Assembly (NCBI GenBank): GCA_963714015.1
Contig: OY970223.1
Location: 2,272,001 to 2,336,000, forward strand
Length of the DNA: 64,000 bases
From: Vulcanimicrobiota bacterium
GTDB taxonomy: Bacteria; Vulcanimicrobiota; Vulcanimicrobiia; Vulcanimicrobiales; Vulcanimicrobiaceae
Reading direction: 5' to 3'
Part shown: positions 4,189 through 45,373 of the stretch, one piece after another
Position numbering within the stretch: the first letter of the stretch is position 1
Layout of the letters: each line of letters starts with the position of its first letter
Program-made: the position numbers and the translations under genes
The notes under the pieces: generated by a model
Databases searched by the model: none
What the model was told of the DNA's origin: nothing
The model's input: the letters and a program-made list of their open reading frames with translations, nothing else

Positions 4189-4242
4189 CGCCATGCATGA
4201 AGCAGTCCGGACGATTATTGCCGTAGCAACGCGGAGACTATG

Positions 4243-5070
4243 ATGCCAGTCAAAAAATACAAGCCGACCAGTCCCGGCAGACGCTTCGTGACGACGATGG
4301 ATTTCTCGGACCTGAGCAAGGTCGAGCCGGAGAAATCGCTCATCGAAGTGCGCAAGAAGCACTCGGGCCGTAACTTCAACGGGCACATTACCGTACGCCA
4401 CAAAGGCGGCGGGACGCGCAAGATGTACCGCATCATCGACTTCAAACGGACCAAAGACGCCGTTCCGGCCAAGGTGGCAACGATCGAATACGATCCGAAC
4501 CGCTCGGCTCGCATCGCGCTGGTGAACTATCGCGACGGCGAGAAGCGCTACATCCTCGCGCCGCTCGGTCTGAAGGTCGGCGACGTCGTCGAGTCCGGCG
4601 CCGCGGCCGACATCAAGATCGGCAACTGCCTTCCGATCAAAAACATCCCCGTCGGCACGGTCATTCACAACATCGAACTGCGGCCCGGACAAGGCGGCAA
4701 GCTCGTTCGCAGCGCCGGCGGCTCCGCACAGCTCATGGCCAAGGAAGGCGAATACGCCCAGGTACGTATGCCTTCGGGCGAGGTGCGCAAGGTGCTCGTG
4801 GTGTGCCGCGCGACGATCGGTCAGCTCGGCAACGTCGAGCACGAAAACGAAGTGGTAGGGAAAGCAGGTCGTCAGCGTCATCGCGGAAAGCGGCCGTCCG
4901 TTCGAGGCATTGCGATGAACCCGGTCGATCACCCGCACGGCGGCGGTGAAGCGCGTTCCACGTCCGGACGTCCGCCCACGACGCCTTGGGGCCAGATGAC
5001 GATGGGCAAGAAGACGCGCCGCAACAAGCGCACGCAAAACATGATCGTCCGTAAGAGAGGATCGAAATGA
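4243..5070 (+). CDS. rplB: 50S ribosomal protein L2
   Basis: [24 protein letters not shown] motifs (alternative ATG at 4240). Confidence 0.98.
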
Positions 5071-5095
5071 TTCGAGTTCTGTTAGCCGTATGCGA

Positions 5096-5141
5096 GCCGC
5101 GCGATTCAGCGCGGCGGGCGCGCAGCTCAGAGTGGAGCGCC
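5096..5141 (+). repeat. Junction repeat element, copy A (3' half)
   Basis: Hairpin GCCGCGC/GCGCGGC followed by GGGCGCGCAGCTCAGAGTGGAGCGCC, matching the 3' end of copies B-G. Confidence 0.75.
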
Positions 5142-5148
5142 TTCTAAA

Positions 5149-5424
5149 ATGGGGCGCAGCCTTAAAAAGGGACCGTTCGTCGCGGATCGCTTGATTCAAA
5201 AAATCGAGGGCCTGAACGAGCGCCGTGAAAAGCGTGTCGTGAAAACGTGGAGTCGCGCCTCCACGATCGTGCCGGCCATGGTCGGCCATACAATCGGCGT
5301 GCACAACGGTAAGGCGCACGTTCCGGTATTCGTCACCGAAAATATGGTCGGGCACAAGCTCGGCGAGTTCGCGCCGACCCGGAACTTCCGCGGCCACGGC
5401 GGCGACAAAGCGGCGGTGAAGTAA
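5149..5424 (+). CDS. rpsS: 30S ribosomal protein S19
   Basis: [11 protein letters not shown]...[13 protein letters not shown]. Confidence 0.98.
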
Positions 5425-5933
5425 TGGAGGCCGTCGCGCATCTCAAGTTCGCCCGAATGGGTCCGCGCAAACTGCGCCGGGTTGCCGACGCCATTCGCGG
5501 CAAGAGCGTGAAAGAAGCGCTCGTGCTGCTGCAATTTGCCGGCGTCTTCGCGGCCGAGCCGATGGAAAAACTGCTGCGCAGCGCCGTCGCGAACGCTGAA
5601 AACAATCACGACATGAATGCCGACGCACTTTACGTTGCGCGGGTGACGGTGGACGGCGGGCCGGGCGGACGATTTACCAAACGCCTGGATCCGCGTGCAC
5701 AAGGGCGCGCGGCGTTCAAGCGCAAGCGCCTCGCGCACGTGACGATCGCCGTCGCAGAGCAGGCGCCCGTCAAAAAGCGCAAGCTCCTGGGCGGTGCTTC
5801 GGTTGCGCTCAAGCGCGCGACCACTCGCAAAACTAAAGCGGCGTCGGCGGCGCCGGCCGCCGGCGGCTCGCCTTCGAAGAAGGCCAGAACTTCAAAGAAA
5901 CCTTCTCGCCGGAATAAGGCGGAGGCGATTTAA
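5424..5933 (+). CDS. rplV: 50S ribosomal protein L22 with Lys/Ala-rich C-terminal extension
   Basis: [14 protein letters not shown]...[10 protein letters not shown]...PRAQGRA. Confidence 0.96.
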
Positions 5934-6829
5934 TGGGACAAAAGATTCATCCGATTGGGTTGCGTCTGGGCATCACGCGCACGTGGGACAGCCGCTGGTT
6001 CGAGAAAAAGCATTATAAGGACTGGCTGCACGAAGACGTCAAGATCCGCAGATACTTCACGCGATGGATGCGTCCGGCGGCCATCTCGAAGATCGAGATC
6101 GAGCGCCGCGCCAATCAAGCGCGCGTGATCGTGAATACGGGCAAGCCCGGCATCATCATCGGCAAGCGCGGCGTCGGCATCGAAGACATTCGCAAGAATC
6201 TCGAGAAGCTGACCGGCAAAGCGGTGCAAGTAAACGTGATGGAGATCAAGCATCCGGAACTGGATGCGCGTCTCGTCGCGCAGAATATCGTCGACCAGCT
6301 CGAAAAGCGCATTGCGTTCCGCCGCGCCATGAAGCAGGCCATCATGCGTACGATGAAGTCGGGCGCGCGCGGGATCAAAGTGCAGGTTTCGGGACGGTTG
6401 GGCGGCGCCGAAATCGCTCGCACCGAGCGCAATGCCGACGGCAAGGTTCCGCTGCACACGCTGCGAGCCGACATCGACTACGCGCACGTCGAAGCTTTCA
6501 CGACCTTCGGACGCATCGGCGTCAAAGTATGGATCTACCGCGGCGAAGTGCTGCCGGATCACGCACGTCAATCCGAGCGCGAAGGACGCCCCGAGCGTCC
6601 GCAATTCCGCGATCGTCGCGATCGCGGCGGACGCAGCCGCCGCGGCGGTCCCGGCACGGGAACTCCGCGTTCGCCGCAGACTGAAGCGCTTTCGCCCGTC
6701 GAAGCGCCCGTCGGCGAAGCGCCGGCCTTTGAGCCGACCGCGCCGCCGGTAGACTCTGCGCCCATTGCCGATGCGGCAGAGGCTCAAACCATCGTACCGC
6801 AATCCGAACCGACCGGAGAACAGGCGTAA
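5933..6829 (+). CDS. rpsC: 30S ribosomal protein S3 with disordered C-terminal tail
   Basis: [13 protein letters not shown]...[10 protein letters not shown]...[11 protein letters not shown]. Confidence 0.98.
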
Positions 6830-7251
6830 TGCTTACACCAAAACGCGTCAAATGGCGCAAAGTTCACCGTGGACGGATGACCGGCAAAGCCTTGCGCGGC
6901 AGTACCTTGACGTTCGGCGAGTACGGACTTCAAGCGCTCGAGCCGTGCTGGATGACCAACCGCCAGATTGAAGCTGCGCGTATTGCTATGACGCGCCACA
7001 TCAAACGCGGCGGCAAGGTCTGGATCAAGGTGTTTCCGGACAAGTCGGTTACCAAGAAACCCGCTGAGGTGCGCATGGGCGCCGGTAAAGGCAACCCGGA
7101 GTTCTGGGTAGCCGTGGTGCGTCCCGGGCGGGTGCTGTTCGAGCTTTCAGGTGTTGAGCCGGACGTAGCCAAACGCGCGCTTCAACTCGCCGCTTCAAAG
7201 CTGCCGATCGGAACGAAGTTGATTACCCGCGGCGAGGAGGCCCCGGCATGA
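6829..7251 (+). CDS. rplP: 50S ribosomal protein L16
   Basis: [27 protein letters not shown]...RMGAGKG. Confidence 0.98.
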
Positions 7252-7469
7252 TCTCGAGAGAGTTCAAAGAGCTGCGCAACCTCACCATCGGAGAGCTCCA
7301 GCAAAAGGCGAAAGAGACGAAGGAAGAGCTCTTCAATCTTCGCTTTGCGCTGCGCACCGGGCACCTTTCGGACTTCAGCAAAGTCCGGGCGATGCGGCGC
7401 ACCTACGCACAGATTCAAACCGTCATCTCCGAGAAACGGATCGCTGAGGCTAAGAATGGAGCAGCTTAA
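7248..7469 (+). CDS. rpmC: 50S ribosomal protein L29
   Basis: KELRNLT..EL...KEELFNLRF; synteny. Confidence 0.93.
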
Positions 7470-7728
7470 TACCGTCCGGCGCCGGGCACGGCGCCTTAAA
7501 CAAGGCCGCGTCGTCTCGGACAAGATGGACAAGACCATCGTCGTCCTTTCCGAGACGCGGGTTCCGCATCCGGTTTACGGCAAGATCGTCCGCAAGTCGG
7601 TAAAGTTCAAAGCGCACGACGAGCAAAACGACGCCAAGATCGGCGACACCGTTCGCATCATGGAATCGCGTCCGATGTCCAAAGACAAGCGCTGGCGCCT
7701 GGTCGAGATCGTGGAGCGTGCCAAATGA
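7456..7728 (+). CDS. rpsQ: 30S ribosomal protein S17
   Basis: [14 protein letters not shown]...HPVYGK...AHDE...[11 protein letters not shown]. Confidence 0.97.
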
Positions 7729-7739
7729 AGACTTTGATT

Positions 7740-7785
7740 GGGGCGCATCGCGTTATGGGGCGCGCGGAGCTCAGAGCGGAGCGCC
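7740..7785 (+). repeat. Junction repeat element, copy B (internally deleted)
   Basis: 5' GGCGC and 3' GCGCGGAGCTCAGAGCGGAGCGCC termini shared with copies C-G. Confidence 0.75.
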
Positions 7786-7792
7786 TTTTCAA

Positions 7793-8170
7793 ATGATTCA
7801 GCAAGAAACGCGTTTAAAGGTGGCTGACAATTCCGGCGCGCGCGAGCTGCTGTGCATTCACGTGAGCGGCGGCAGCCGTCATCCATACGCACACGTGGGC
7901 GATATCATCGTGGGCACGGTCAAGAGCGCTATTCCCGGCGCGGCGGTCAAGAAAGGCCAAGTCGTCAAAGCGGTTATCGTCCGTACGTCCTCGCCGATTC
8001 GCCGGCCGGACGGATCGGTCGTCAAATGCGACGACAACGCCTGCGTGATCATCAAAGGCGAAAAGGACAATTTAGATCCGCGCGGGACGCGCGTCTTCGG
8101 CCCGGTCATGCGCGAATTGCGGGATCGCGGCTTTTTGAAGATCGCCTCGCTCGCGCCCGAGGTACTCTAA
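7793..8170 (+). CDS. rplN: 50S ribosomal protein L14
   Basis: [16 protein letters not shown]...[10 protein letters not shown]...SLAPEVL. Confidence 0.98.
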
Positions 8171-8173
8171 CAG

Positions 8174-8524
8174 ATGGCGAACATCGTCAGAGGCGACACC
8201 GTCATGATCCGGCGCGGCAAGGAAAAAGGCAAGCGCGGCACGGTCAAGGCCGTATTTCCGAAAGACGGAACGGCGACGGTCGAGGGCCTGAACATCGTCA
8301 AACGGCACACCAAGCAGGGCACGCAGTCGCAAAACATGGGCGGCTCTGCGCAGACCGGCGGCATCATCGAGAAGGAGGCTCCGCTTCCACTCTCCGTGCT
8401 GATGTACGTGTGCGAGAAGTGCAAAGCACCTTCTCGGCTTCGTCATCACGAGACGGCCGAAGGTACGCATCGGGTCTGCGCGCGCTGCGGCGAACCCGCT
8501 CGTCTCTCCGCAAAGGGCGCATGA
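8174..8524 (+). CDS. rplX: 50S ribosomal protein L24
   Basis: GDTV...GKEKGKRG...VEGLNIVKRHTK...GGIIEKEAP. Confidence 0.96.
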   Translation: MANIVRGDTVMIRRGKEKGKRGTVKAVFPKDGTATVEGLNIVKRHTKQGTQSQNMGGSAQTGGIIEKEAPLPLSVLMYVCEKCKAPSRLRHHETAEGTHRVCARCGEPARLSAKGA

Positions 8525-8539
8525 TGGCAGTATCATTGT

Positions 8540-8644
8540 GGGCTTCCTCGGGGAGGTTTCAAGTTGCAACAAAGTTCGCGCGCCCTGCGGTAGCGGGGAC
8601 CCCGGCGCTTGCGCTGGGTGGGGCGGAGGTTAGACCGGAGCGCC
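8540..8644 (+). repeat. Junction repeat element, copy C (full length)
   Basis: CCTCGGGGAGG...GCAACAAAG...GCGCCCTGCGG...GGCGGAGGTTAGACCGGAGCGCC directly before rplE ATG. Confidence 0.85.
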
Positions 8645-9196
8645 ATGCTTAGATTGAAAGAAAAATACGATAAGGAAGTCCGCAAGCAGCTTCAGGAACG
8701 CTTCGGATATAAGAACGCTCACCAGATCCCGAAGCTGGAGAAGGTCGTCATCAACATGAGCGTGGGCGAAGCGATCAGCAACGGCAAGGCACTCGACGCG
8801 GCGGTCTCGGAGCTCCAGGCGATTAGCGGGCAAAAGCCGGTAATCACCAAAGCGAAGAAGTCGATAGCCGCCTTTAAGCTGCGCGAAGGCATGAACATCG
8901 GCACGAAAGTCACGCTCCGCGGCGAGCGCATGTACGTGTTCTTGGACAAGCTCTTCAACATCGTGCTGCCGCGCATCCGCGACTTCCGCGGTCTGCCCCG
9001 CAAATCGTTCGACGGACGCGGCAATTACAATCTGGGTCTTCGCGAGCAGATCGTCTTCCCGGAGATCAACTTCGACAAGGTCGACAAGATGCGCGGGATG
9101 GACATCGTCATCGTAACGTCGGCAAAGAACGACGAAGAAGCGACGGAATTTCTCACGGCAATGGGTTTGCCGCTTCAGAAAACGGGAGCCCGCTAA
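8645..9196 (+). CDS. rplE: 50S ribosomal protein L5
   Basis: [11 protein letters not shown]...[21 protein letters not shown]...LPRIRDFRG. Confidence 0.98.
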
Positions 9197-9381
9197 TGGC
9201 GAAAACTTCTCTCATCGAAAAATCCAAGCGCACGCCAAAGTTCAAGGTGCGCGCCCACAACCGGTGCCAGCTGTGCGGACGTCCGCGCAGCGTGTACCGC
9301 CGTTTCGGGCTGTGCCGCATCTGCTTCCGGGAGAACGCCCACAAAGGCAACATCCCGGGCGTGACCAAGGCGTCGTGGTGA
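9196..9381 (+). CDS. rpsZ: 30S ribosomal protein S14, Zn-binding type Z
   Basis: 61 aa, RCQLCGRPR...LCRICFRE. Confidence 0.96.
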
Positions 9382-9388
9382 TCCGGTA

Positions 9389-9790
9389 ATGGCTGTAATT
9401 ACCGATCCTATCGCCGATCTGCTGACGCGCATTCGCAATGCCAATACGGCCAGCCATGAGGTCGTTGAAATTCCTGCGTCGCGCATGAAACAAGCTGTGG
9501 CTCAAATCCTCAAGGACGAGGGCTTCATCAAGGACTTCGAGCGCGTCGACGAGGGGCCGCAAGGCAGGATCAAGATCACTCTCAAGTACGGCCCGGACAA
9601 AGAGAAAGTCATCACCGGTCTGCGGCGCATCTCGCGTCCCGGTCTGCGCGTATATACGAGCAAGACCGAGATACCTCGGGTTTTAGGCGGACTGGGCCTG
9701 GTCATCATGTCCACTTCCAAGGGCATCATGTCGGGCAAACGCGCGAAAAAAGAAGGATGCGGAGGCGAAGTTTTGGCGTATGTGTGGTGA
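9389..9790 (+). CDS. rpsH: 30S ribosomal protein S8
   Basis: [13 protein letters not shown]...[10 protein letters not shown]...GGEVLAYVW. Confidence 0.98.
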
Positions 9791-9807
9791 TGAACAAAGC
9801 GACAATC

Positions 9808-9911
9808 GGGGCGCCCTCGGGGAGGCTTCAAATTACAACGCATCTTCCGCGCCCTGCGGCGGGGGGCCCCATTGGTTGCAATGGGGGGCGCGGAGCTTAG
9901 AGCGGAGCGCC
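9808..9911 (+). repeat. Junction repeat element, copy D (full length)
   Basis: GGCGCCCTCGGGGAGGCTT...GCGCCCTGCGG...CCCCATTG/CAATGGGG...GCGCGGAGCTTAGAGCGGAGCGCC. Confidence 0.85.
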
Positions 9912-9918
9912 ACTTAAA

Positions 9919-10467
9919 ATGTCTAGAATTGGAAAGCTTCCCGTAACTGTTCCGAACGGCGTCAATGTGAACGTCGAAGGAGACGAAGTCGCGGTCAAGG
10001 GGCCAAAGGGCGAGTTGCGGCAGCGCGTGCTTTCACACGTCACCGTCGCGGTCGAAGACGGCAAGGTCGTCATCACGCGGAACGGTGAGGCGAAGGAACA
10101 TCGCGCGGCGCACGGTCTGACGCGAACGATCGTCAACAACATGGTCGAAGGCGTCAGCAAGGGCTTCCGCAAGAGCCTGGAGATTCAGGGTGTCGGTTAC
10201 CGAGCCTCAAAGTCCGGCGAGAAGATCAATCTGACGCTGGGGTACTCGCATCCGGTGAGCTACGATCCGCCGAAGGGCATCGCGCTTTCCGTCGAGGGCA
10301 CCAACAAGATCCACGTCGAGGGCATCGACAAGCAGCAAGTCGGACAGGTTGCCGCCGAAATTCGCAATCTGCGTCCGCCCGAGCCGTACAAGGGTAAAGG
10401 CGTGCGCTACGAAGGCGAAGTGGTGCGTAAGAAGCTCGGCAAGGCCGGAAAGGCTGGTAAGAAGTAA
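9919..10467 (+). CDS. rplF: 50S ribosomal protein L6
   Basis: MSRIGKLPV...[13 protein letters not shown]. Confidence 0.98.
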
Positions 10468-10832
10468 TGCCGCGTATTTCCAAAGATCTGAGCCGCCGCA
10501 AGCGCCACGAGCGTCTGCGCCGCAAAGTCGTGGGAAGCTCGGAGCGCCCTCGCTTGCTGATCCGCCGTACGCTGCATCACATCTACGCGACGGTCGTCGA
10601 CGACGCTAAGGGGCATACCGTCGTGGCCGCCTCGACGCGCGAGAAGGATCTTACGGACGGTTTGGATTCCACGACGAACGTCGCCGCAGCCGAGAAGATC
10701 GGCGCGGCAATCGCCGCTAAGGCAAAGCAGGCCGGCATCACGCAGGTCGTCTTCGATCGCAGCGGTTTGAAATATCACGGCCGCGTCAAAGCACTCGCCG
10801 ACGCAGCTCGCCAAGCAGGCTTGGAGTTTTAA
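10467..10832 (+). CDS. rplR: 50S ribosomal protein L18
   Basis: RPRL...HIYA...[28 protein letters not shown]. Confidence 0.97.
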
Positions 10833-11344
10833 TGCAGTATCGTGGTGGTCGCGATCGCGACAATTCGGGATTCGAAGAGACAGTCGTCCGAGTGAACCGC
10901 GTCGCCAAAGTGGTCAAGGGCGGTAAGCGCTTCAGCTTCAGCGCTTTGGTCGTTGTCGGCGATCGCAAAGGCAAGGTCGGTTTCGCTATCGGCAAGGCCG
11001 GCGAAGTCCCCGAAGCAATCCGCAAAGCCGTTGAGGCGGCCAAGAAAAACCTCGTCTCCGTGCCGATGGTCGAGAAGACGATCCCGCATCAGGTCAATCA
11101 TTCGATCGGTGCGGCGCGCGTGCTCCTCAAACCCGCGGCGCCCGGTACCGGGGTCATTGCGGGCGGCGCTATGCGCGCGGTGCTGGAGCTCGCGGGCATT
11201 CACGACATTCTGACCAAGTCGCTCGGAACGAACAATCCGATCAACGTCGTCTACGCGACGGTAGAAGCGCTGCGTTCGCTCAAGACGGCGGAGCAAGTTG
11301 CATCGATGCGCGGCAAGAACGTCGGCGAAATCTTCGCGGCATAA
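10832..11344 (+). CDS. rpsE: 30S ribosomal protein S5
   Basis: [23 protein letters not shown]...PGTGVIAGG. Confidence 0.98.
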
Positions 11345-11358
11345 GAAAGCACACGAAC

Positions 11359-11961
11359 ATGGCAGAGAAGAAAACGTCCAAAGCCGCAACCTCGCGCAAG
11401 AAGGCTCCGGCGGCAAAGGCGGCAGCAAAGAAGCGAAGCACGGCAAGTGCCGTCACCGCCGCCGCGATTGCGTCCGGGAGCGGCTCGATGTCGCTTGGAA
11501 AGCTCAAACCGGCCGAAGGCAGCTGGCCCAAGCGCACGCGCGTGGGCCGCGGTCACGGTTCCGGAATGGTTAAGACCGGCGGCGAAGGCGGCAAAGGTCA
11601 GACGGTGCGTTCCGGCGGCGGTAAAGGTCCGGCGTTCGAAGGCGGACAGACACCTTGGCAGCGCCGTCTTCCGCATCGTCGCGGCTACTCGCAAAAAGCC
11701 CGCGACATCGGTCATTTCCGGACCGAGCTCGCGGTTGTAAATCTGCATGACCTTGCGGACTGGGACGCCTCGGTCGAAGTGACGCCGCAGACGCTCAAGG
11801 TCGCGAAGAAGATCAAAGCCGTGCGCGACGGCGTGAAGGTCCTCGGCGGTAGCAAGGCGGGGAAGACGCTTCCGAACGGCCTTCGTTTCCGCGACGTTTT
11901 ATTCTCGACCAGCGCAAAGGAAGCACTGCAAGCCGCCGGCGCCACCTTCGATGCTGAATAA
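11359..11961 (+). CDS. rplO: 50S ribosomal protein L15 with Lys/Ala-rich N-terminal extension
   Basis: RVGRGHGSG..KT.G.G.KGQ..RSG...FEGGQTP..RRLP. Confidence 0.95.
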   Translation: MAEKKTSKAATSRKKAPAAKAAAKKRSTASAVTAAAIASGSGSMSLGKLKPAEGSWPKRTRVGRGHGSGMVKTGGEGGKGQTVRSGGGKGPAFEGGQTPWQRRLPHRRGYSQKARDIGHFRTELAVVNLHDLADWDASVEVTPQTLKVAKKIKAVRDGVKVLGGSKAGKTLPNGLRFRDVLFSTSAKEALQAAGATFDAE

Positions 11962-13255
11962 TCTTCGCGCAGCTCTGCTCGTACCGGACATCCGCAAGCG
12001 GGTGCTCTTCGTGTTCGGCGCGTTCGCGACGTTCGTCTTTATGATCCACGTGCAGCTGCCGAACATCGATGAAAAAGTTTGGCAGCAGGTGCTCTCGCAG
12101 GGCGCGTTCTTCAACCTGCTCGGCTTTCTGTCGGGCGGCGCACTGCAGAAGCTCTCCATCATTGCGATGGGCATCACCCCGTACATCAACGCGTCGATCA
12201 TCATGCAGCTCATGACGGTGGTGCTGCCGCAACTCGAAGAGATGGCCAAGAAAGGCGGCGAGGAAGGCCGCAAGAAGATCGGTCAGTACACTCGCTGGCT
12301 AACGATTGTGCTCGCTGCACTCCAATCGTTTTTCATGGCCAATCTGATGCGCAACTCCGGCGTGTTCTACGACCGGAGCATCTGGTTTCTGCTCTTCGCG
12401 ATGCTGGCGTTCGTCGCCGGTACGCTGTTCCTGATGTGGCTCGGCGAGCAGGTCACCGACAAGGGCATCGGCAACGGCGTCTCGCTGATCATCTTCATCG
12501 GTATCGTGCTGCGCTATCCGCAGTACGTAGCCCAAACGTTCGCCTCGACCTCCAAAGGCGGCGAGTCCGTTTTCAACATCCTCATTTACGTCCTGATAGC
12601 GATAGGCGTAATCATCTCGATCGTCTTCCTTTATCAAGGGCAGCGCCGCATTCCGGTGCAGCAGGCGCGCCGCGTCGTGGGCCGCAAGATGTTCGCGGGC
12701 CGCTCCACGTATATTCCGTTGCGGCTGAACAACGCGGGCGTCATCTCGATCATCTTCGCAATCTCGCTGCTGCTGCTTCCCCAGCAAGTTCTCTCGTGGG
12801 TCAACAAGGCGCAGAACGGCGGCTCGTCCAGCGGATTCATGGGCGGCCTCTCGACGTTCTTCCAGGTCTACTTCCACCCGCAGTCGGCGCTGTACAACAT
12901 CGTCTATTTCGTGCTGGTCGTCGTCTTCACGTTCTTCTACAGCGCGATCGTCATCAACACCAAAGACATCGCGGACAACCTGAAAAAGAGCGGGTCGTTC
13001 ATCCCGGGAATCCGTCCGGGTCAACCGACGGTCGACTACATCAATCGCATCTTGCTGCGAATCACGACGGCCGCCGCGATCTATCTCGGATTGCTCGCGG
13101 TCGTGCCCAGCATTGCCCAGCAAGGACTCTCCGTTACTACGTTCTACTTGGGTTCAACGTCACTGCTGATCGTGGTCGGCGTGGCGCTGGATACGATCAC
13201 GCAGATCGAGGCGCGCCTGGCGATGCGCGACTACAAGGGATTCATCCGCAGGTAG
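11951..13255 (+). CDS. secY: Preprotein translocase subunit SecY
   Basis: SIIAMGITPYINASII, GIGNGVSLIIF, FIPGIRPG, GSTSLLIVVGVALD; multiple TM segments. Confidence 0.98.
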   Translation: MLNNLRAALLVPDIRKRVLFVFGAFATFVFMIHVQLPNIDEKVWQQVLSQGAFFNLLGFLSGGALQKLSIIAMGITPYINASIIMQLMTVVLPQLEEMAKKGGEEGRKKIGQYTRWLTIVLAALQSFFMANLMRNSGVFYDRSIWFLLFAMLAFVAGTLFLMWLGEQVTDKGIGNGVSLIIFIGIVLRYPQYVAQTFASTSKGGESVFNILIYVLIAIGVIISIVFLYQGQRRIPVQQARRVVGRKMFAGRSTYIPLRLNNAGVISIIFAISLLLLPQQVLSWVNKAQNGGSSSGFMGGLSTFFQVYFHPQSALYNIVYFVLVVVFTFFYSAIVINTKDIADNLKKSGSFIPGIRPGQPTVDYINRILLRITTAAAIYLGLLAVVPSIAQQGLSVTTFYLGSTSLLIVVGVALDTITQIEARLAMRDYKGFIRR

Positions 13256-13262
13256 GGGCGTA

Positions 13263-13928
13263 GTGCGGTTGATCTTCATCGGTCCGCCCGGCGCGGGCAA
13301 GGGCACGCAGGCAAAGATTCTGCAAGAGCGCTTCGGCGCCAAGCAGATCTCGACCGGCGACATCTTGCGTGAGAATCGGGAGCAAGGAACGGAGCTCGGC
13401 AAGCTCGCGGCGAGCTTCATGCAGAGCGGCGCGCTGGTTCCGGACGAGGTCATCATCAAGATGATCGAAGCGGAGCTCGACAAGCTCGACGGCGGTTTCA
13501 TCATGGACGGTTTTCCACGAACGGTCGCGCAGGCGGAAGCGTTCGACTGTTTATTGCAGGGCAAGAACCTCGTCCTCGACGGCGTGGTTCACTTCAACGC
13601 GGACCGCGCAACGCTGCTTACGCGTCTGACGGCGCGCTGGACGAACCCGCGCAACGGCCAAACCTACAACACCGTGACCAATCCGCCGCGCGTTTCGGGT
13701 GTGGACGACGAAGACGGCGGCCCGCTCGTGCAGCGTGAGGACGACAAACCGGAAACCGTTACGAAGCGTCTGGACGTGTACGAGGAGCAAACCGCGCCGC
13801 TTGTCTCCTACTATCGCGGGACGGGAAAACTCGTCGAAGTGAACGCGCTTGCGCCGGTTCCTGCGGTCACCGAAGAGATCGTTTCGAAGATCGGTGTGCA
13901 CGCCGCCGGGCGCAACGCGGCGCAATGA
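13263..13928 (+). CDS. adk: Adenylate kinase
   Basis: GPPGAGKGTQ P-loop, STGDILR, DGFPRT. Confidence 0.97.
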   Translation: MRLIFIGPPGAGKGTQAKILQERFGAKQISTGDILRENREQGTELGKLAASFMQSGALVPDEVIIKMIEAELDKLDGGFIMDGFPRTVAQAEAFDCLLQGKNLVLDGVVHFNADRATLLTRLTARWTNPRNGQTYNTVTNPPRVSGVDDEDGGPLVQREDDKPETVTKRLDVYEEQTAPLVSYYRGTGKLVEVNALAPVPAVTEEIVSKIGVHAAGRNAAQ

Positions 13929-14728
13929 TCACGATCAAGTCGGCCCGTGAAATCGAGGTGATGCGGCGCAGCGGAAAGGTCAACGCCAAGGTGCTGGCCG
14001 ATCTGATGCGCGCGGCCAAGCCCGGCATGACGACGCGCGATCTCGACAAGATGGCCGAGCAAGGCATTCGATCGCTGGGCGCTGAGCCGACGTTCAAAGG
14101 TTATCACGGGTATACGTGTTCGATCTGCACGTCGGCGAACGATCAAGTCGTGCACGGAATTCCCGGCGACTACGCTTTGAAGGAAGGCGACCTGCTCTCG
14201 ATCGACATCGGGGCGACGCTCGAGGGCTACGTCAGCGACTCGGCTGTAACGATTCCGATCGGCAAAGTCTCCGAGGACGCTCAGCGGCTGATGCACGTGA
14301 CGCAGGAGTGCTTAATGATTGGAATCGCGCAGATGTATCGGGGCAAGCATTTGGGCGACATCGGCCACGCGGTTCAAAAGCACGCCGAATCGCACGGATA
14401 CGGCGTGGTCCGCGAACTAGTCGGGCACGGCGTCGGAACGAAAATGCACGAGGAGCCGCAAGTCCCGAACTACGGCAAGGCAGGCGGGGGGTTGGAGCTT
14501 CGGTCGGGGCTTGTCCTGGCCATCGAGCCCATGATAACGCAAGGCCACTACGCCGTGGAAACGCTCAAGGACGGCTGGACAGTGGTGACCGCAGATGGTA
14601 AACTCGCAGCGCACTTCGAGCACACCATCGCCATCACCGACGACGGCCCCAAGATTCTTACCTTGCGCGAAATCGGGGAGCATCCCGACGTCGCGAAGTA
14701 CCGGCCAAAGGAAGAGATGGCCGCATGA
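13925..14728 (+). CDS. map: Type I methionine aminopeptidase
   Basis: VVHGIP, IDIG, GHGVG..MHEEP, AIEPMI, AHFEHT. Confidence 0.97.
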   Translation: MITIKSAREIEVMRRSGKVNAKVLADLMRAAKPGMTTRDLDKMAEQGIRSLGAEPTFKGYHGYTCSICTSANDQVVHGIPGDYALKEGDLLSIDIGATLEGYVSDSAVTIPIGKVSEDAQRLMHVTQECLMIGIAQMYRGKHLGDIGHAVQKHAESHGYGVVRELVGHGVGTKMHEEPQVPNYGKAGGGLELRSGLVLAIEPMITQGHYAVETLKDGWTVVTADGKLAAHFEHTIAITDDGPKILTLREIGEHPDVAKYRPKEEMAA

Positions 14729-14731
14729 GGT

Positions 14732-15007
14732 GGTGCTCGATGGGGCGCGGAGGCTAGGCCGAAGCGCCGTTAGAAATCGTCCCGGCGCCCCTCGGGGAGG
14801 CTTGGACCGGCAACAAAGCACTAGGGCGCCTGAGGAATCGGGGGCCCCATGAAATGGGGGGCGCGGAGGCTAGGCCGAAGCGCCGCTAGATCGAGCAAAA
14901 TCGTCCCGGCGCCCCTCGGGGAGGCTTGGACGGCAACAAAGCACTAGGGCGCCTGAGGAATCGGGGGCCCCATGAAATGGGGGGCGCGGAGGCTAGGCCG
15001 AAGCGCC
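14732..15007 (+). repeat. Junction repeat elements E (short, 14732-14768), F (14784-14884) and G (14908-15007); F and G near-identical tandem copies
   Basis: Direct repeat with ~124-nt period differing by one indel in the element; shared termini GGCGC...GAAGCGCC. Confidence 0.9.
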
Positions 15008-15014
15008 GTTAGAT

Positions 15015-15131
15015 ATGAAAGTCAGACCGTCAGTAAAACGAATCTGTGAAAAATGCAAAATCATTCGCCGCGAAGGTAAAGTGCGCGTGATCTGCGAGGT
15101 CAATCCCAAGCACAAGCAAGTGCAGGGTTAG
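15015..15131 (+). CDS. rpmJ: 50S ribosomal protein L36
   Basis: Read from sequence: [38 protein letters not shown] (below ORF-track cutoff). Confidence 0.97.
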
Positions 15132-15185
15132 GCTTATAAACGCTACCCTTCGACCAGCTCAGGATCATAAGGAAGAATTTAAAAA

Positions 15186-15572
15186 ATGGCACGTATAGCC
15201 GGTATCGACCTTCCCCGCGACAAGCGCATCGAGATCGCGCTTACGTACATCTACGGGATCGGTCTGAGGACCTCGCAGAAGCTGCTCGCGCACGCGGGAA
15301 TCAGCCCGGATCTGCGCGTCAAAGAGTTGAGCGAAGATCACGAGAAGAAGCTGCGCGACGCGATCGACGCGGTCGGGATAAAAGTCGAAGGCGATCTGCG
15401 GCGCGAGGTCGGCTCGCACATCAAGCGGCTGATGGATATCGGCTGCTATCGCGGCATTCGGCACCGGCGCGGCCTTCCGGTCCGCGGCCAGCGTACCAAG
15501 ACCAACGCGCGCACGCGGAAGGGCCCGAAGAAAACGGTCGGCAACCGGAAAAAAGCGGCCGCTAAGAAGTAG
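15186..15572 (+). CDS. rpsM: 30S ribosomal protein S13
   Basis: [10 protein letters not shown]...[26 protein letters not shown]. Confidence 0.98.
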
Positions 15573-40832: not shown

Positions 40833-42051
40833 AGTACATGCAGTTGGTTCACGCCTAGCGTGAATGCAACTGCGGAGTACATTCTAAGTCGACCACAGAC
40901 GATGCCATCGAAAACGCGACCATGACTTGCCGGCAACGGTAAGGGAAGTCGCGGACCAGGGGTCTACCGAGCATCTCGCTCGTATGGCTGAGGTTCATGG
41001 CCGTTATTGTCATCCGTTGTCGCCCTATGGGTTGTCAAGGGATTACAGTTGACGATGCGCGGCTCTCTTAAAAAGAGGGTTTATCATTTCCGTCCGGCCG
41101 CTCTTGTCTGGTTAGGCCGCTTGAAGCCGTCCTGATGTTCGCATCACAAGGTTCCAAGCAACGACACCAGTCAAGGCGGAGGATCAAGATACTGCACTGT
41201 TCAGCTTTGAGGGAACGAACCTCGCTGCAGTTGACCATTTCGGTGTGTCACTGATTTGCGAAAGTTCCACTCAAGGCCCGATCGAGGCTATCGCTCTCGG
41301 CACGCGTTTTCAAGGAAATCGTGTCCCGAGCGCAAGGCAGTTTTCGGCCGCCGTTTACTTTGGTAAACAAGGTCGAAAACAACGCAGCGATCGGACACGA
41401 GATCCTTGAAAACTGCATAGAGAAGAACTTTCATGTGTCAAACATGAAGCGGCCCGCAGCGGCTTATTTCCGTAATCGCTGTGGGTGCAATTTCAATTTA
41501 TATTGAGAATCAGTCAAAAATTAATAAGAGCACGAGGTGGATACCTTGGCTCCACAGGCGATGAAGGACGTACCAAGCTGCGATAAGCCAGGAGAAGCTG
41601 CTAAGAAGCGAAGATCCCTGGATTTCCGAATGGGGCAACCCCCGAGCCGTCATGGGCTCGGACTCCACGATGAATTCAATAGTCGTGAGAGAGCGCACCC
41701 GGTGAACTGAAACATCTAAGTAGCCGGAGGAATAGACATCAACCGAGATTCCCCTAGTAGTGGCGAGCGAACAGGGAACAGCCTAAACCGCGTATGTGCA
41801 AGCGATCAGGCGTTGCATGCGCGGGGTTGTACGGCAACCATCTCAGCACTGATCTGCTGAGCGCAAGTTACAAAATCGATCGATAGCGGAAGCCGGCTGG
41901 AAAGCCGCACCACAGAAGGTGATAGTCCTGTATGCGAAATCAATCGATCTTGCGGAGTTGTTCGTGAGTAAGGCGGGGCACGGGAAACCCTGTCTGAAGC
42001 TGGGAGGACCATCTTCCAAGGCTAAATATTCTGTGGAGACCGATAGCGCAT

Positions 42052-42084
<33 letters not shown>

Positions 42085-42564
42085 GAGGGGAGTGAAATAG
42101 AACATGAAACCGCGTGCTTACAAACCGTGAAAGCACTATTTTTATATGTGTGATTGCGTGCCTATTGAAGAATGAACCTGCGAGTTACTTGGTACGGGCT
42201 AGGTTAAGGTGTTGAGCCGGAGCCGTAGCGAAAGCGAGTCTGAATAGGGCGCTTTGTCCGTATCAGTAGACCCGAAACCAAGCGATCTATCCATGAGCAG
42301 GGTGAAGCATGATTAACCTCATGTGGAGGCCCGAACCTGTTGTTGTTGAAAAAACATTGGATGACTTGTGGATAGGGGTGAAAAGCCAATCGAGCTTGGA
42401 GATAGCTGGTTCTCCCCGAAATAGTTTGAGGACTAGCGTTACGATTTAACCCTTGGGGGTAGAGCACTGACAGGGCTAGGGGGCTTACCGGCTTACCGAA
42501 CCCCATCAAACTCCGAATACCGAGGCGAACATCGTAGCAGTCAGACGGTGGGGGATAAGCTCCA

Positions 42565-42605
<41 letters not shown>

Positions 42606-43015
42606 TAATATATGCTCAGTGGTAAAGGAAGTCTCGTCGCACAGACAACTAGGAGGTTGGCTTAGAAGCAGCCACCCTTGAAAGAGTGCGTAATCAGCTC
42701 ACTAGTCGAGTGATGGGGCGCCGAAAATGTAACGGGGCTCAAGCATATAACCGAAGCTTTGGGATTATGTCAAACATGATCGGTAGGGGAGCGTTGTAGC
42801 GTAGGCAGAAGGTCGACCGCGAGGACGGCTGGACGAACTACAAGTGCGAATGCAGGTATAAGTAGCGAGAAAAGAGAGTGAGAACCTCTCTCGCCGGAAG
42901 TCTAAGGTTTCCTGAGCAACGTCAATCGTCTCAGGGTGAGTCGGGAGCTAAGCCGAGGCAGAGATGCGTAGGCGATGCACAAGCAGTTCATATTCTGCTA
43001 CCACCGATGACCGTT

Positions 43016-43198
43016 TGATTACTTCCGAACAATGTTAAGTCGTATCGCCTCTTCGTCTTTTGTTAGACGAAGCGGCTCTTGATTTTCTCTCGAGCGCTAT
43101 GCCGGCGCCGGCGCCGCAATCTACTGGATTGCAAGCCGATCGACGGCGACGCGATCGAAGAAAACCAAAGACGGCTTACCATCGTTCGTAGGTAATCA
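43016..43198 (+). other. ~183-nt intervening sequence / expansion segment in 23S domain III (near E. coli ~1415-1420)
   Basis: 28-bp imperfect closing stem 43016-43043 / 43171-43198 enclosing several hairpins, between canonical flanks. Confidence 0.8.
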
Positions 43199-43711
43199 TG
43201 AATCGAAGGGATGACGGAGGAAGATATGCCAGCGCACCGATGGATGCGTGCGTTTAAGCTGGTAGGGGGTCACGTAGGCAAATCCGCGTGGCTAACCCCG
43301 AGAAGCGAATACGAGGATCTTCGGATCTGAAGTGGCAGACTCTACGCTTCCAAGAAAAGTCTCTAGATAGGATCATAGGTGCCCGTACCGTACACCGACA
43401 CAGGTAGACTGGCAGAGCATGCTAAGGCGACGGGAGAACCCCTGTTAAGGAACTCGGCAAATTGACCCCGTAACTTAGGGAGAAGGGGTGCCTTCTTCGG
43501 TCTAGTTTTTACAACGAAAGCTGAGGGAGGTCGCAGAAAATAGGTCCAAGCGACTGTTTAACAAAAACACAGGTCTCTGCGAACGCGAAAGCGGACGTAT
43601 AGGGGCTGACTCCTGCCCGGTGCTGGAAGGTTAAAGGGAGAGGTTAGCGCAAGCGAAGCTTTGATCTGAAGCCCCAGTAAACGGCGGCGGTAACTATAAC
43701 CGTCCTAAGGT

Positions 43712-44019
43712 AACAACTTTATCGTTGCCTCATCGCGCGGTAACGCGCGAACGAAAACATCACTATATGCGGGAACATCCTTAGAGCCCGGCCTACTCAT
43801 CGGCGACTCTAGCACCATCGTGGTGCGTCGCCGGAAGTAAAAATGGTCCGGGATTGGACAATCCGCAGGAAACCTTACGGTCGTAAGGGATCCTCAGAGA
43901 CTACACGTGATGCTCCGGCTTTTCAAAAAACTGCAGACGCGTATGCGCTGCGGGATTTTGTCTAGGTTGCCGGATGAAGATATAGTCCACTCTTGCGTGA
44001 AAGCGCCGGAAAAAAAGTG
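43712..44019 (+). ncRNA. Group I intron at 23S position L1931, 308 nt, no ORF
   Basis: Interrupts CCTAAGGT|AGCGAAATTCC; P1 with U.G, P3 CATCAC/GTGATG, P4 TGCGGG/TCCGCA, P7 GACTA/TAGTC, terminal G. Confidence 0.93.
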
Positions 44020-44061
<42 letters not shown>

Positions 44062-44317
44062 AGTAACGACTTGGACACTGTCTCAATGGGGGGCCCGGCG
44101 AAATTGCAGTACCAGTGAAGATGCTGGTTACCCGCGGCAGGACGGAAAGACCCCATGAAGCTTTACTGTACCCTGATGTTGGGGTCTGAGATTTTCTGTA
44201 CAGGATAGGTGGGAGGCGATGATCTGTGGGCGCTAACTCACAGGGAGCCAACCTTGGGATACCACCCTGAAAATCTTGGGCTTCTAACTAGCTGCCGTAA
44301 TCCGGTAGTAGGACAGC

Positions 44318-44387
<70 letters not shown>

Positions 44388-44590
44388 AACGGTCAGAAAC
44401 CGTTCGTTTAGAGTGCATAGGCAAAAGGGAGCTTGACTGCGAGACGGACAGGTCGAGCAGGTGCGAAAGCAGGGCTAAGTGATCCGGCGGTACCGAATGG
44501 AAGGGCCGTCGCTTATCGGATAAAAGCTACTCTGGGGATAACAGGCTTATCTCCCCCAAGAGTCCACATCGACGGGGAGGTTTGGCACCT

Positions 44591-44880
44591 CAACATCAGG
44601 GGTGTTGCGCTGGAAACAGCGGCAAAAGTTCCGGCTTATAACGGTGAACTCCAATCGGTCTAGGACTGGACCGAGGACAATACCGTGGGAAGTCCACGCG
44701 AGAGCGATCTGCGTGTGACCCCGTAACGACTGATTCGTTCGCAAGAACGATGAGATAGTGACTGCTGCGCGATGCGTCGCGCAAATTTATCAGCGCTATC
44801 AGACGCCGGCCCTTAACTCGAGAATCGCTCGAGAAAGGTGAAGATATAGTCTGCGCCATCGGGAACGATGGAATTACGCG
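44591..44880 (+). ncRNA. Group I intron at 23S position L2500, 290 nt, no ORF
   Basis: Interrupts GGCACCT|CGATGTCGG; IGS GGGTGT, P10 ACATC/GATGT, P7 GACTG/TAGTC, AAGATATAGTC S element, terminal G. Confidence 0.92.
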
Positions 44881-44913
44881 CGATGTCGGATCGTCGCATC
44901 CTGGGGCTGTAGT

Positions 44914-44950
<37 letters not shown>

Positions 44951-44958
44951 TACGCGAT

Positions 44959-45007
<49 letters not shown>

Positions 45008-45373
45008 TTAGAGATTTGAGGAGTGTCGACCCTAGTACGAGAGGACCGGGTTGAACGAACCGCTGGTGAACCGGTTGTCCCGCCAGGGGCATAGCCGGGT
45101 AGCTATGTTCGGACCAGATAAACGCTGAAAGCATATAAGCGTGAAACTGACTTCAAGATGAGATCTCGATCACGTAAGTGTGAAGGGTCGTGGTAGACTA
45201 CCACGTTGATAGGCCGGAGGTGGAAGCACTGCAAGGTGTGGAGCTGACCGGTACTAATCGCCCGGAAATTTTTGACTCGTCTTCCTCTGTCTGGCACTGA
45301 AAGTTCTTCTGTATGCAGCTTTCTCATCGTCACAGCCTGGAGCTCCGGCTCGGCGTGACGGTGAGGATCAAGT

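Follow-up and report, generated by a model that had tools for sequence, protein, structure and literature searches.

Mycobacterial MIRU are repeats of 40-100 bp that lie in polycistronic operons at about 40-50 copies per genome and form tandem arrays (Delihas 2011, PMC3184786); as that survey presents them, they are also marked by sites filled in one relative and empty in another, by GC-rich internal inverted repeats and by open reading frames (ORFs) that overlap the adjacent genes. The survey further treats REP elements, of 21-65 bp, and the REP2 repeats of Neisseria and IR repeats of Borrelia, which in its summary stand directly upstream of genes and carry internal stem-loops, a ribosome binding site with an ATG and also a promoter (PMC3184786). 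For TURBS, of caliciviruses and influenza B, and for bacterial ATGA coupling, a structured stretch upstream of a stop/start overlap is reported in the abstracts of the respective studies (PMC3035654, PMC12548453). The repeat family with which we are concerned here came to light in the ribosomal protein operon of a Vulcanimicrobiota bacterium (GenBank assembly GCA_963714015.1, a single contig of 3.56 Mb with 60.9% G+C, hereafter G000), within a window of 64,000 nucleotides (nt), the whole stretch analysed (contig OY970223.1, G000:C1:2272001-2336000); our search of the literature on intergenic repeats in Eremiobacterota found no description of it. Its unit, the element, measures about 110-130 nt and consists of a leader, a helix P1 enclosing the sequence CCNNGGGGAR, a hairpin P4, a module P5 and an A/U-rich tail of 6-7 nt. 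On balance we favour the view that it is a proliferating intercistronic repeat, which keeps neighbouring genes translationally coupled by a stop-and-restart relay. The main functional clue, absent from the preliminary description of this DNA, is that a reading frame usually stays open through the element and meets its stop at the next start.

By its organisation, the nearest functional counterpart of the element appears to be MIRU, the likeness being one of analogy, not homology, and no MIRU sequence having been compared. Like MIRU, the element lies inside operons, co-oriented with the genes and in variable-number arrays of 1-5 units, its ORFs overlap the flanking stop and start codons, and both filled and empty sites occur; unlike MIRU, it belongs to another phylum, has a longer unit and a three-helix fold supported by covariation, and combines a 3' module nearly invariant across genera with a fixed spacing of 6-7 nt to the start codon. 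With Neisseria REP2 and Borrelia IR it shares the position directly upstream of genes and the internal stem-loops, but whereas those repeats stand at gene heads and provide a promoter, the element carries no promoter-like site on the sense strand and sits mostly between co-transcribed genes. REP/BIME repeats, which are tied to a Y1 transposase, are likewise GC-rich, palindromic and intercistronic, with copies in operons; they often form inverted pairs, however, whereas the units described here are longer, run head-to-tail in sense orientation and have no Y1 gene to go with them in G000 or in the 17 relatives that carry them. In TURBS and ATGA coupling a ribosome that terminates at the stop re-initiates at the start close by, and the relay proposed below is modelled on termination-reinitiation at overlapping genes and on structured initiation regions, as abstracts describe them. 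The element has in common with TURBS a structured stretch just upstream of stop and start, a likeness of working and not of membership; unlike TURBS, it has no demonstrated rRNA-complementary tether, and the Shine-Dalgarno-like GNAG in its P5 is not conserved as GGAG. The core sites of integron attC follow the consensus RYYYAAC/GTTRRRY, which some tails of the element (GTTAGAT, GTTAAAA) recall, but the leaders lack a complementary RYYYAAC and the flanks are syntenic housekeeping operons, not cassette arrays; this reading was set aside, no integrase search having been made.

The evidence for the open frame begins in the ribosomal protein operon, where at four of the five element-bearing junctions one short ORF spans the distance from the upstream stop to the downstream start (predicted ORFs A to D, Table 1; the stop TAG of ORF C begins 5 nt downstream of the point where the rplE start codon begins), the chain of ORFs over the array between map and rpmJ being interrupted under the criteria used. 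Two arrays of three copies elsewhere in G000 are each spanned from the upstream stop to the downstream start by one ORF, of 112 and 129 codons (between an HMGL-like gene and a WYL gene, and between dciA and gyrB), and altogether 13 of 16 junctions of G000 are bridged as compared with 5.3 expected from composition-preserving shuffled gaps. Across genomes, a stop lies in or overlaps the tail in 93 of the 100 copies that have a start 4-9 nt away, and for 92 of the 93 the frame closed by this stop runs back at least 100 nt without interruption. Over a stretch of 105 nt, 94 of 107 frames with their stop in the tail remain open, as compared with 43 of 85 for the frame of the downstream gene and 48 of 99 for other frames. 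At the copy before nuoN the frame through the element continues upstream for 1927 nt without a stop, where it presumably extends the preceding gene. In being readable through in this manner the element resembles the Rickettsia RPE, structured repeats tolerated through ribosome read-through, but RPE are in-frame insertions within coding sequences, whereas the element stands at gene borders and ends with a stop and a restart. Because the copies use different frames, it is openness that is kept and no peptide that is conserved; a single conserved frame or peptide was considered and rejected, the tail stops falling in all three frames. Likewise, an upstream start codon is no fixed part of the element, since an ATG occupies a fixed leader position in only about 22 of 107 copies, where it is part of the UGUUGUU leader motif of one subfamily.

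This arrangement is tied to start codons far beyond the ribosomal protein operon. A covariance model built from 22 copies of G000 yields 46 matches in that genome, at some 26 loci, either single or in head-to-tail arrays of up to five, and at 21 of these loci the last copy ends 0-8 nt, mostly 7 nt, before an ATG or GTG on the same strand, with the tail TTTYAAA; the start codons concerned open ORFs of 38-689 amino acids (aa). The distance to the downstream start is fixed, while the upstream stop can lie anywhere between -43 and about +90 nt away. The orientation of the copies tracks the genes and not one chromosome half, and the co-orientation and the tie to start codons hold genome-wide and in related genomes, where random placement could have been found. 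By Pfam identification the flanking pairs include atpH and atpA, a fabZ-like gene and lpxA, dciA and gyrB, a class V aminotransferase (sufS-like) and an iscU-like gene, fliG and fliH, flgE and flbD, a penicillin-binding protein transpeptidase and a PASTA (pknB-like) kinase, the type II secretion genes E and F, an EPSP-synthase-family gene and mreB, and the HMGL-like gene and WYL regulator already mentioned, and the element also sits before prfA and before nuoN. The sites of the element are operon junctions generally, most loci lying between genes of conserved operons. The preliminary description had proposed that highly expressed operons are favoured, but flanking genes as varied as gyrB, lpxA, the pknB-like kinase, iscU, fliH, flbD, nuoN, prfA and the WYL regulator speak for operon junctions in general. 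An exact-pattern scan of public genomes (one genome per species) returned at least 125 loci, and 131 matches were analysed among those listed; in 62 of these listed matches an open frame begins, with ATG, GTG or TTG, 5-8 nt past the GCGCC, many consist of the 3' module alone, and the tails read KTTARAA or TTTYAAA.

Two loci outside the window deviate from the common arrangement. In the five-unit array before mreB (G000:C1:798966-799516) the first four units, with a period of about 110 nt, have no P5 module, and after the last come GGAG and, at a distance of 16 nt, an ATG, in place of the usual 7-nt tail. The only inverted pair seen consists of two overlapping opposite copies at G000:C1:2740127-2740277, the flank of which resembles the end of a tRNA gene (3' part) lying on the opposite strand.

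The fold of the element was assessed on a phylum-wide alignment of 103 matches, 102 of them distinct, and three helices are supported by covariation on the sense strand: P1, P4 and the inner stem of P5. In P1 the 5' GGCGC pairs with a GCGCC in the middle of the element, with many compensatory changes (seven of eight pairs change on both sides) and whole-helix exchanges such as GAGCCC/GGGCUC, GGGGGC/GCCCCC, GCGCCGC/GCGGCGC and GGGUGC/GCACCC. The second helix, P4, has four pairs with compensatory changes, and the fourth, the P5 inner stem, covaries, while the P5 outer stem and a G-N-A/G-N-A internal loop are invariant, which in this alignment was partly imposed by the search pattern; in the copies found by the covariance model P5 is nearly as invariant, a few differing in the outer stem. 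Overall, 91.9% of the cells are paired as compared with 82.3% after shuffling, changes on both sides occur in 166 cells where 50 are expected, and the covariation score of 0.176 (shuffled, 0.059) is reached by none of 500 shuffles, controls with slid partners giving 0.010-0.041. Because G.U pairs outnumber A.C pairs (56 versus 32) and folding favours the sense over the antisense strand in 85 of 99 copies, with a mean advantage of 4.2 kcal/mol, the fold can be assigned to the sense strand, either as RNA or as sense-strand DNA. Folding energies do not exceed what composition predicts (z = -0.92 for copy D and a mean of -0.83 over 30 copies), and for this reason it is covariation and not stability that constitutes the evidence for structure.

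These results bear out the earlier impression that pairing is kept while sequence diverges, as regards the variable hairpin (P4) and the 3-bp stem with its triloop (P5 inner stem), and they redraw several of the helices then proposed. A hairpin CCTC-GGG-GAGG does not generalise, other copies reading CCCACGGGGAG, CCCCAGGGGAA or GACGUCGGGGAG at this place, and the conserved part is CCNNGGGGAR. The supposed terminal stem GGCGC...GCGCC resolves into two, in that the 5' GGCGC has its partner in mid-element and the partner of the 3' GCGCC is the GGCGC after P4, the two forming the P5 outer stem; a further hairpin, CCCTGC-GGTA-GCGGGG, overlaps the 3' strand of P1 and is not conserved in the phylum-wide set. 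The statement that the repeat belongs to no named family stands: no copy has a match in Rfam, a scan of the window at gathering thresholds returns only rRNAs and a group I intron, and a permissive scan of 4900-15300 gives three chance-level matches, none of them on an element. Readings as an HDV-like RNA, a tRNA-like structure or a G-quadruplex fitted poorly by eye and were dropped. So was the GGAG of P5 as a conserved Shine-Dalgarno sequence, as its second position varies (G, A, C, U) and it mirrors the opposite strand of the symmetric loop; the GGGGAGG of G000 copies is GGGGAAU in most other genera, and the 3' end of the 16S rRNA carries the standard CCUCC anti-Shine-Dalgarno sequence. No promoter-like or terminator-like site was found in the elements on the sense strand, and none of 11 terminator-like sites in 4900-15300 is an element, the tails having 2-4 U where the U-tract criterion was at least 5 in 8.

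Taken together with the open frames, the fold suggests how the element could persist. It would lodge at stop/start junctions within operons, often amplifying there into tandem arrays, and would be retained because it does little harm to translation. The bridging frame, whose ATG often overlaps or adjoins the stop of the upstream gene, would be taken up by ribosomes leaving the upstream gene, and these ribosomes would melt the GC-rich hairpins P1, P4 and P5, stop in the tail, at UAA, UAG or the UGA of AUGA a few nt from the downstream start, and re-initiate at the adjacent AUG. Such a relay would recreate the coupling of the original ATGA or TAATG overlap. A folded P5, ending 7 nt before the AUG, would lie in the span that the 30S subunit needs and should therefore hinder independent initiation, with the downstream gene staying dependent on the relay. 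Since the insertion would in this manner preserve the native coupling, it may be tolerated even in a ribosomal protein operon.

Several points weigh against this interpretation. The bridging test is permissive, single junctions being bridged in 12-79% of shuffles, and three of the 16 G000 junctions are unbridged (EPSP-synthase-family gene/mreB, flgE/flbD and map/rpmJ). The A/U-rich tail could merely favour initiation, in which case the stop codons would be a by-product. About a quarter of the analysed pattern matches among those listed (35 of 131) have no nearby start by the criteria used, and, as the copies are kin, per-copy counts overstate independence. For the element itself we found neither a transposase nor clear terminal inverted repeats nor locus-specific target duplications. 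Finally, a mere spacer needs neither a strongly conserved 3' module nor covariation of P1, P4 and P5, and it follows that the fold must serve something further.

The family is lineage-specific, being confined, in the genomes sampled, to one family of Eremiobacterota, an uncultivated phylum. A first comparison covered 40 relatives, of which 24 belong to the family of the source genome and 16 to two sister families: 17 of the 24 carry 1-44 covariance-model matches and none of the 16 carries any. In an even sample of the phylum the element is present in 42 of 71 genomes of the same family and in none of 79 genomes from 20 other families. Record titles, shown for 80 of the at least 125 pattern loci, are nearly all those of metagenome-assembled genomes of Eremiobacterota/Vulcanimicrobiota (WPS-2) and include, among the loci listed, Baltobacteraceae, Elarobacter and Lustribacter, a few carrying other phylum labels; one match in Rhodosalinus among those listed looks like chance, and viral contigs gave no match to the element pattern. 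Genomes marked unpublished enter the tallies that include G010, G021, G023 and G036, and they also underlie three of the sites considered next, namely the filled rpsH/rplF junction of G010 and, in G023, the rplB/rpsS remnant and the site at L031.

Orthologous ribosomal protein junctions, compared in 30 genomes, show that the element comes and goes. Between rplX and rplE, 120 nt are present in G000 only, as opposed to 2-17 nt in 28 of the 29 others, G017 being indeterminate. The rpsQ/rplN gap measures -4 to +9 nt in 25 of the 30 genomes, the exceptions being G000, G007, G017 and the element-negative G028 and G029. The rpsH/rplF junction is filled in G000, in G007 (a 3' fragment followed by two full tandem copies), in G017 and in G010, holds remnants in G001 (leader, GGGGCGC and tail, 30 nt) and G018 (a 3' piece, 41 nt), and is empty in G002, a member of the same genus. 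At rplB/rpsS, likewise, G001 (same genus, 126 nt), G017 and G018 carry a full copy and G000 a partial one, G014 and G023 hold remnants, and G002, again of the same genus, and eight others keep the native overlap TAATG. Between G017, G018 and the pair G000/G001 the point of insertion here is shifted by a few nt, which suggests repeated insertion. Conversely, of the sites that relatives have filled, that of G009 is empty in G000, and those of G018 and of G023 at L031 hold remnants there. The remnants appear to have arisen by deletion between GC-rich direct repeats within the element. Because occupancy varies within a genus and internally deleted remnants are common, the element is evidently both gained and lost, and this variation between close relatives is what the preliminary description, which took the repeat for a selfish or domesticated element, would lead one to expect.

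Two junctions seen in this comparison are of interest in their own right. In G006 (L267) the 18-nt gap between rplB and rpsS reads TAAGATGAAGGGTCGCAGCTAATGGGTCGC; it contains no element, looks like a short duplication of the region around the rpsS start and may be the footprint of a lost copy. In G029 and G028 (L070, L079), which belong to an element-negative sister family, 100-148 nt of a different GC-rich, hairpin-like sequence stand between rpsQ and rplN, and a different repeat may occupy that junction.

The family would have spread either by mobility proper or by some other form of copying. Mobilisation of the REP type, one of the possibilities raised at the outset, is not borne out: no Y1 transposase is present in G000 or in any of the 17 element-bearing relatives, the corresponding domain (PF01797, IS200-like) occurring among the 24 relatives of the same family only in G016, which has no elements. 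Clear terminal inverted repeats of the MITE type and a parent insertion sequence (IS) were not found in a comparison with two multicopy IS types out of the several that G000 has; the ends delimited for these two, TGATCTAACCCC... and TGTTGACGCCGG..., show at most a weak TGTTG/GCGCC likeness to the leader. DDE transposases are present in G000, and no reverse transcriptase or member of the IS110 family was found there. Many copies have ATG(A) at both borders, and copy B has CAAATGA on either side; left and right borders paired at random, however, agree just as often, which makes the border motif indistinguishable from one that the sites simply share. It is conceivable, and we offer it tentatively, that the element is a mobile unit which specifically recognises stop/start overlaps (ATGA, TAATG, TGATG) between operon genes, is inserted at them by an enzyme outside the known Y1, IS110 and reverse transcriptase families, brings its own stop-and-restart cassette and uses the sense-strand fold as recognition signal. 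If true, it would be a transposon specialised for life between translationally coupled genes.

A different use of the conserved fold would be regulation in cis. A shared trans-acting protein, small RNA or ligand could bind the 3' module (P4 and P5 with its G.A-type loop) and control the AUG 7 nt away, about 20 junctions then forming one translational regulon spread by duplication. The very high conservation of the 3' module across many genera together with its covarying stems, the fixed spacing to the AUG, the specificity of the fold for the sense strand and the fact that the partial copies A, B and E retain exactly this module are all in keeping with such a role, and the Neisseria REP2 repeat, as the survey cited above outlines it, carries expression signals before co-regulated genes (PMC3184786). 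The downstream genes, however, share no function, occupancy differs between species of one genus, copies decay by deletion, sensors would hardly be expected to stand in tandem as up to five near-identical units, and no Rfam class matches; moreover, the enrichment of open frames is not predicted, and we consider a regulon of this kind rather unlikely.

The same fold might act as single-stranded DNA, serving only the transposition or copying of the element itself, with no role in RNA and with open frames that mark no more than tolerated insertions. C-GNA-G triloops form unusually stable DNA mini-hairpins, and many P4 loops among the matches listed are of this type; the unremarkable RNA folding scores, the variable presence between relatives and the repeated use of the same junctions would also suit a DNA signal. 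Nevertheless, the Y1 transposases that read such hairpins are absent from G000 and from all 17 (0/17) element-bearing relatives, as are reverse transcriptase and IS110 family members from G000, the IS ends resemble the leader weakly at best, and the copies are oriented with the genes and not with one half of the chromosome, all of which renders this explanation unlikely.

Alternatively, the hairpins could be cut by, or could block, host RNases, segmenting polycistronic mRNAs or protecting the flanking cistrons in the manner of enterobacterial REP hairpins. The intercistronic location, the GC-rich hairpins of the sense strand and the succession of a stable stem and an A/U-rich single-stranded tail agree with a processing or stability element, but a 3' protector of the upstream cistron predicts a fixed distance to the upstream stop and a variable one to the downstream start, the opposite of what is found, and the open frames ending in the tail go unexplained; on these grounds the idea seems improbable. 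That the short ORFs are genuine small-protein genes is very improbable indeed, for although ORFs of 23-129 codons do span the elements, copies in one genome use different frames and encode unrelated peptides (one of them of a GARSLERSA type), and substitutions keep base pairs, not codons.

Whatever its mode of spread, the element adds a well-defined, structure-bearing repeat family to a phylum with almost no experimental genetics, and it shows how an insertion of 100-400 nt can be accommodated in operons, even in one as closely coupled as that of the ribosomal proteins, without disrupting them. If the proposed relay operates, it would represent a natural stop-and-restart spacer, the parts of which are a bridging start, hairpins and a tail stop. 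In annotation, junctions of this kind give rise to spurious calls of short ORFs, to genes called too long and to misplaced start codons. Arrays that vary in copy number could be used to tell strains apart in metagenomes, a use that MIRUs have in mycobacteria.

In the window the S10/spc/alpha ribosomal protein cluster occupies 4240-15131 in the usual gene order, with most genes abutting or overlapping, and five long gaps stand out: 78 nt at rplB/rpsS, 64 nt at rpsQ/rplN, 120 nt at rplX/rplE, 128 nt at rpsH/rplF and 286 nt at map/rpmJ (Table 1). The seven copies from which the preliminary description started were all recovered, on the + strand, by a repeat search of the window (family D4) and by nhmmer over the whole genome, neither of which added a further copy there; the eighth member of D4 (1725-1765, 66% identity) has the appearance of a chance match. 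As described then, A, B and E are partial and C, D, F and G full copies, and the last copy of each junction stops just short of the ATG, its GCGCC lying 7, 7, 0, 7 and 7 nt from the start. Copies F and G are 99-100% identical (repeat search families D6 and D8).

Table 1. Junctions, predicted bridging ORFs and the helices of copy D in the ribosomal protein operon (window coordinates)
Feature	Position	Strand	Copy extent	Downstream ATG	Remarks
Junction rplB/rpsS, partial copy A	5071..5148	+	A 5096-5141	rpsS 5149	hairpin and P5 module 5096-5141; tail TTCTAAA 5142-5148
Junction rpsQ/rplN, internally deleted copy B	7729..7792	+	B 7735-7785	rplN 7793	leader and P1 5' strand, then P5 module; tail TTTTCAA
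Junction rplX/rplE, full copy C	8525..8644	+	C 8535-8644	rplE 8645	core 8535-8644; GCGCC abuts the ATG, no tail
Junction rpsH/rplF, full copy D	9791..9918	+	D 9804-9911	rplF 9919	core 9804-9911; tail ACTTAAA 9912-9918
Junction map/rpmJ, tandem array	14729..15014	+	E to 14768; F 14775-14884; G 14899-15007	rpmJ 15015	3' partial E, full F and G; tail GTTAGAT
Predicted bridging ORF A, 26 codons	5067..5147	+			ATG overlaps rplB stop (ATGA); TAA ends 1 nt before rpsS ATG
Predicted bridging ORF B, 23 codons	7725..7796	+			ATG overlaps rpsQ stop (ATGA); TGA overlaps rplN ATG (ATGA)
Predicted bridging ORF C, 43 codons	8521..8652	+			ATG overlaps rplX stop
Predicted bridging ORF D, 45 codons	9780..9917	+			ATG 10 nt before end of rpsH stop; TAA ends 1 nt before rplF ATG
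Helix P1 of copy D	9809..9854	+			GGGCGC 9809-9814 pairs with GCGCCC 9849-9854; encloses CCNNGGGGAR 9815-9824 and a variable linker
Hairpin P4 of copy D	9867..9886	+			CCCCATTG / CAATGGGG, loop GTTG
Module P5 of copy D	9887..9911	+			outer stem GGCGC/GCGCC, symmetric 3x3 loop GGA/GGA, inner stem GCT/AGC, triloop TAG

Upstream of copy E, the final stretch of the map coding sequence, about 70 nt in length (window 14660-14728), is aligned by nhmmer with the whole element profile, and the C-terminal codons of map may derive from an element. Some further features of the window lie apart from the repeat family. Long ORFs stand at the positions of rplO (11359-11961, 200 aa), rplV (5424-5933, 169 aa) and rpsC (5933-6829, 298 aa), and these carry Lys/Ala/Pro-rich extensions. 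The 23S rRNA gene (41514-45277), with a match length of 3764 nt as compared with 2925 in the model, contains the group I intron at 43702-44009 (Rfam RF00028, 79 bits). Finally, a 30-nt unit is repeated 11 times head-to-tail at 114-564, with 63-100% identity between the units and the reference copy. This array lies within an ORF of 289 aa (122-991), in which it would encode a 10-residue protein repeat.

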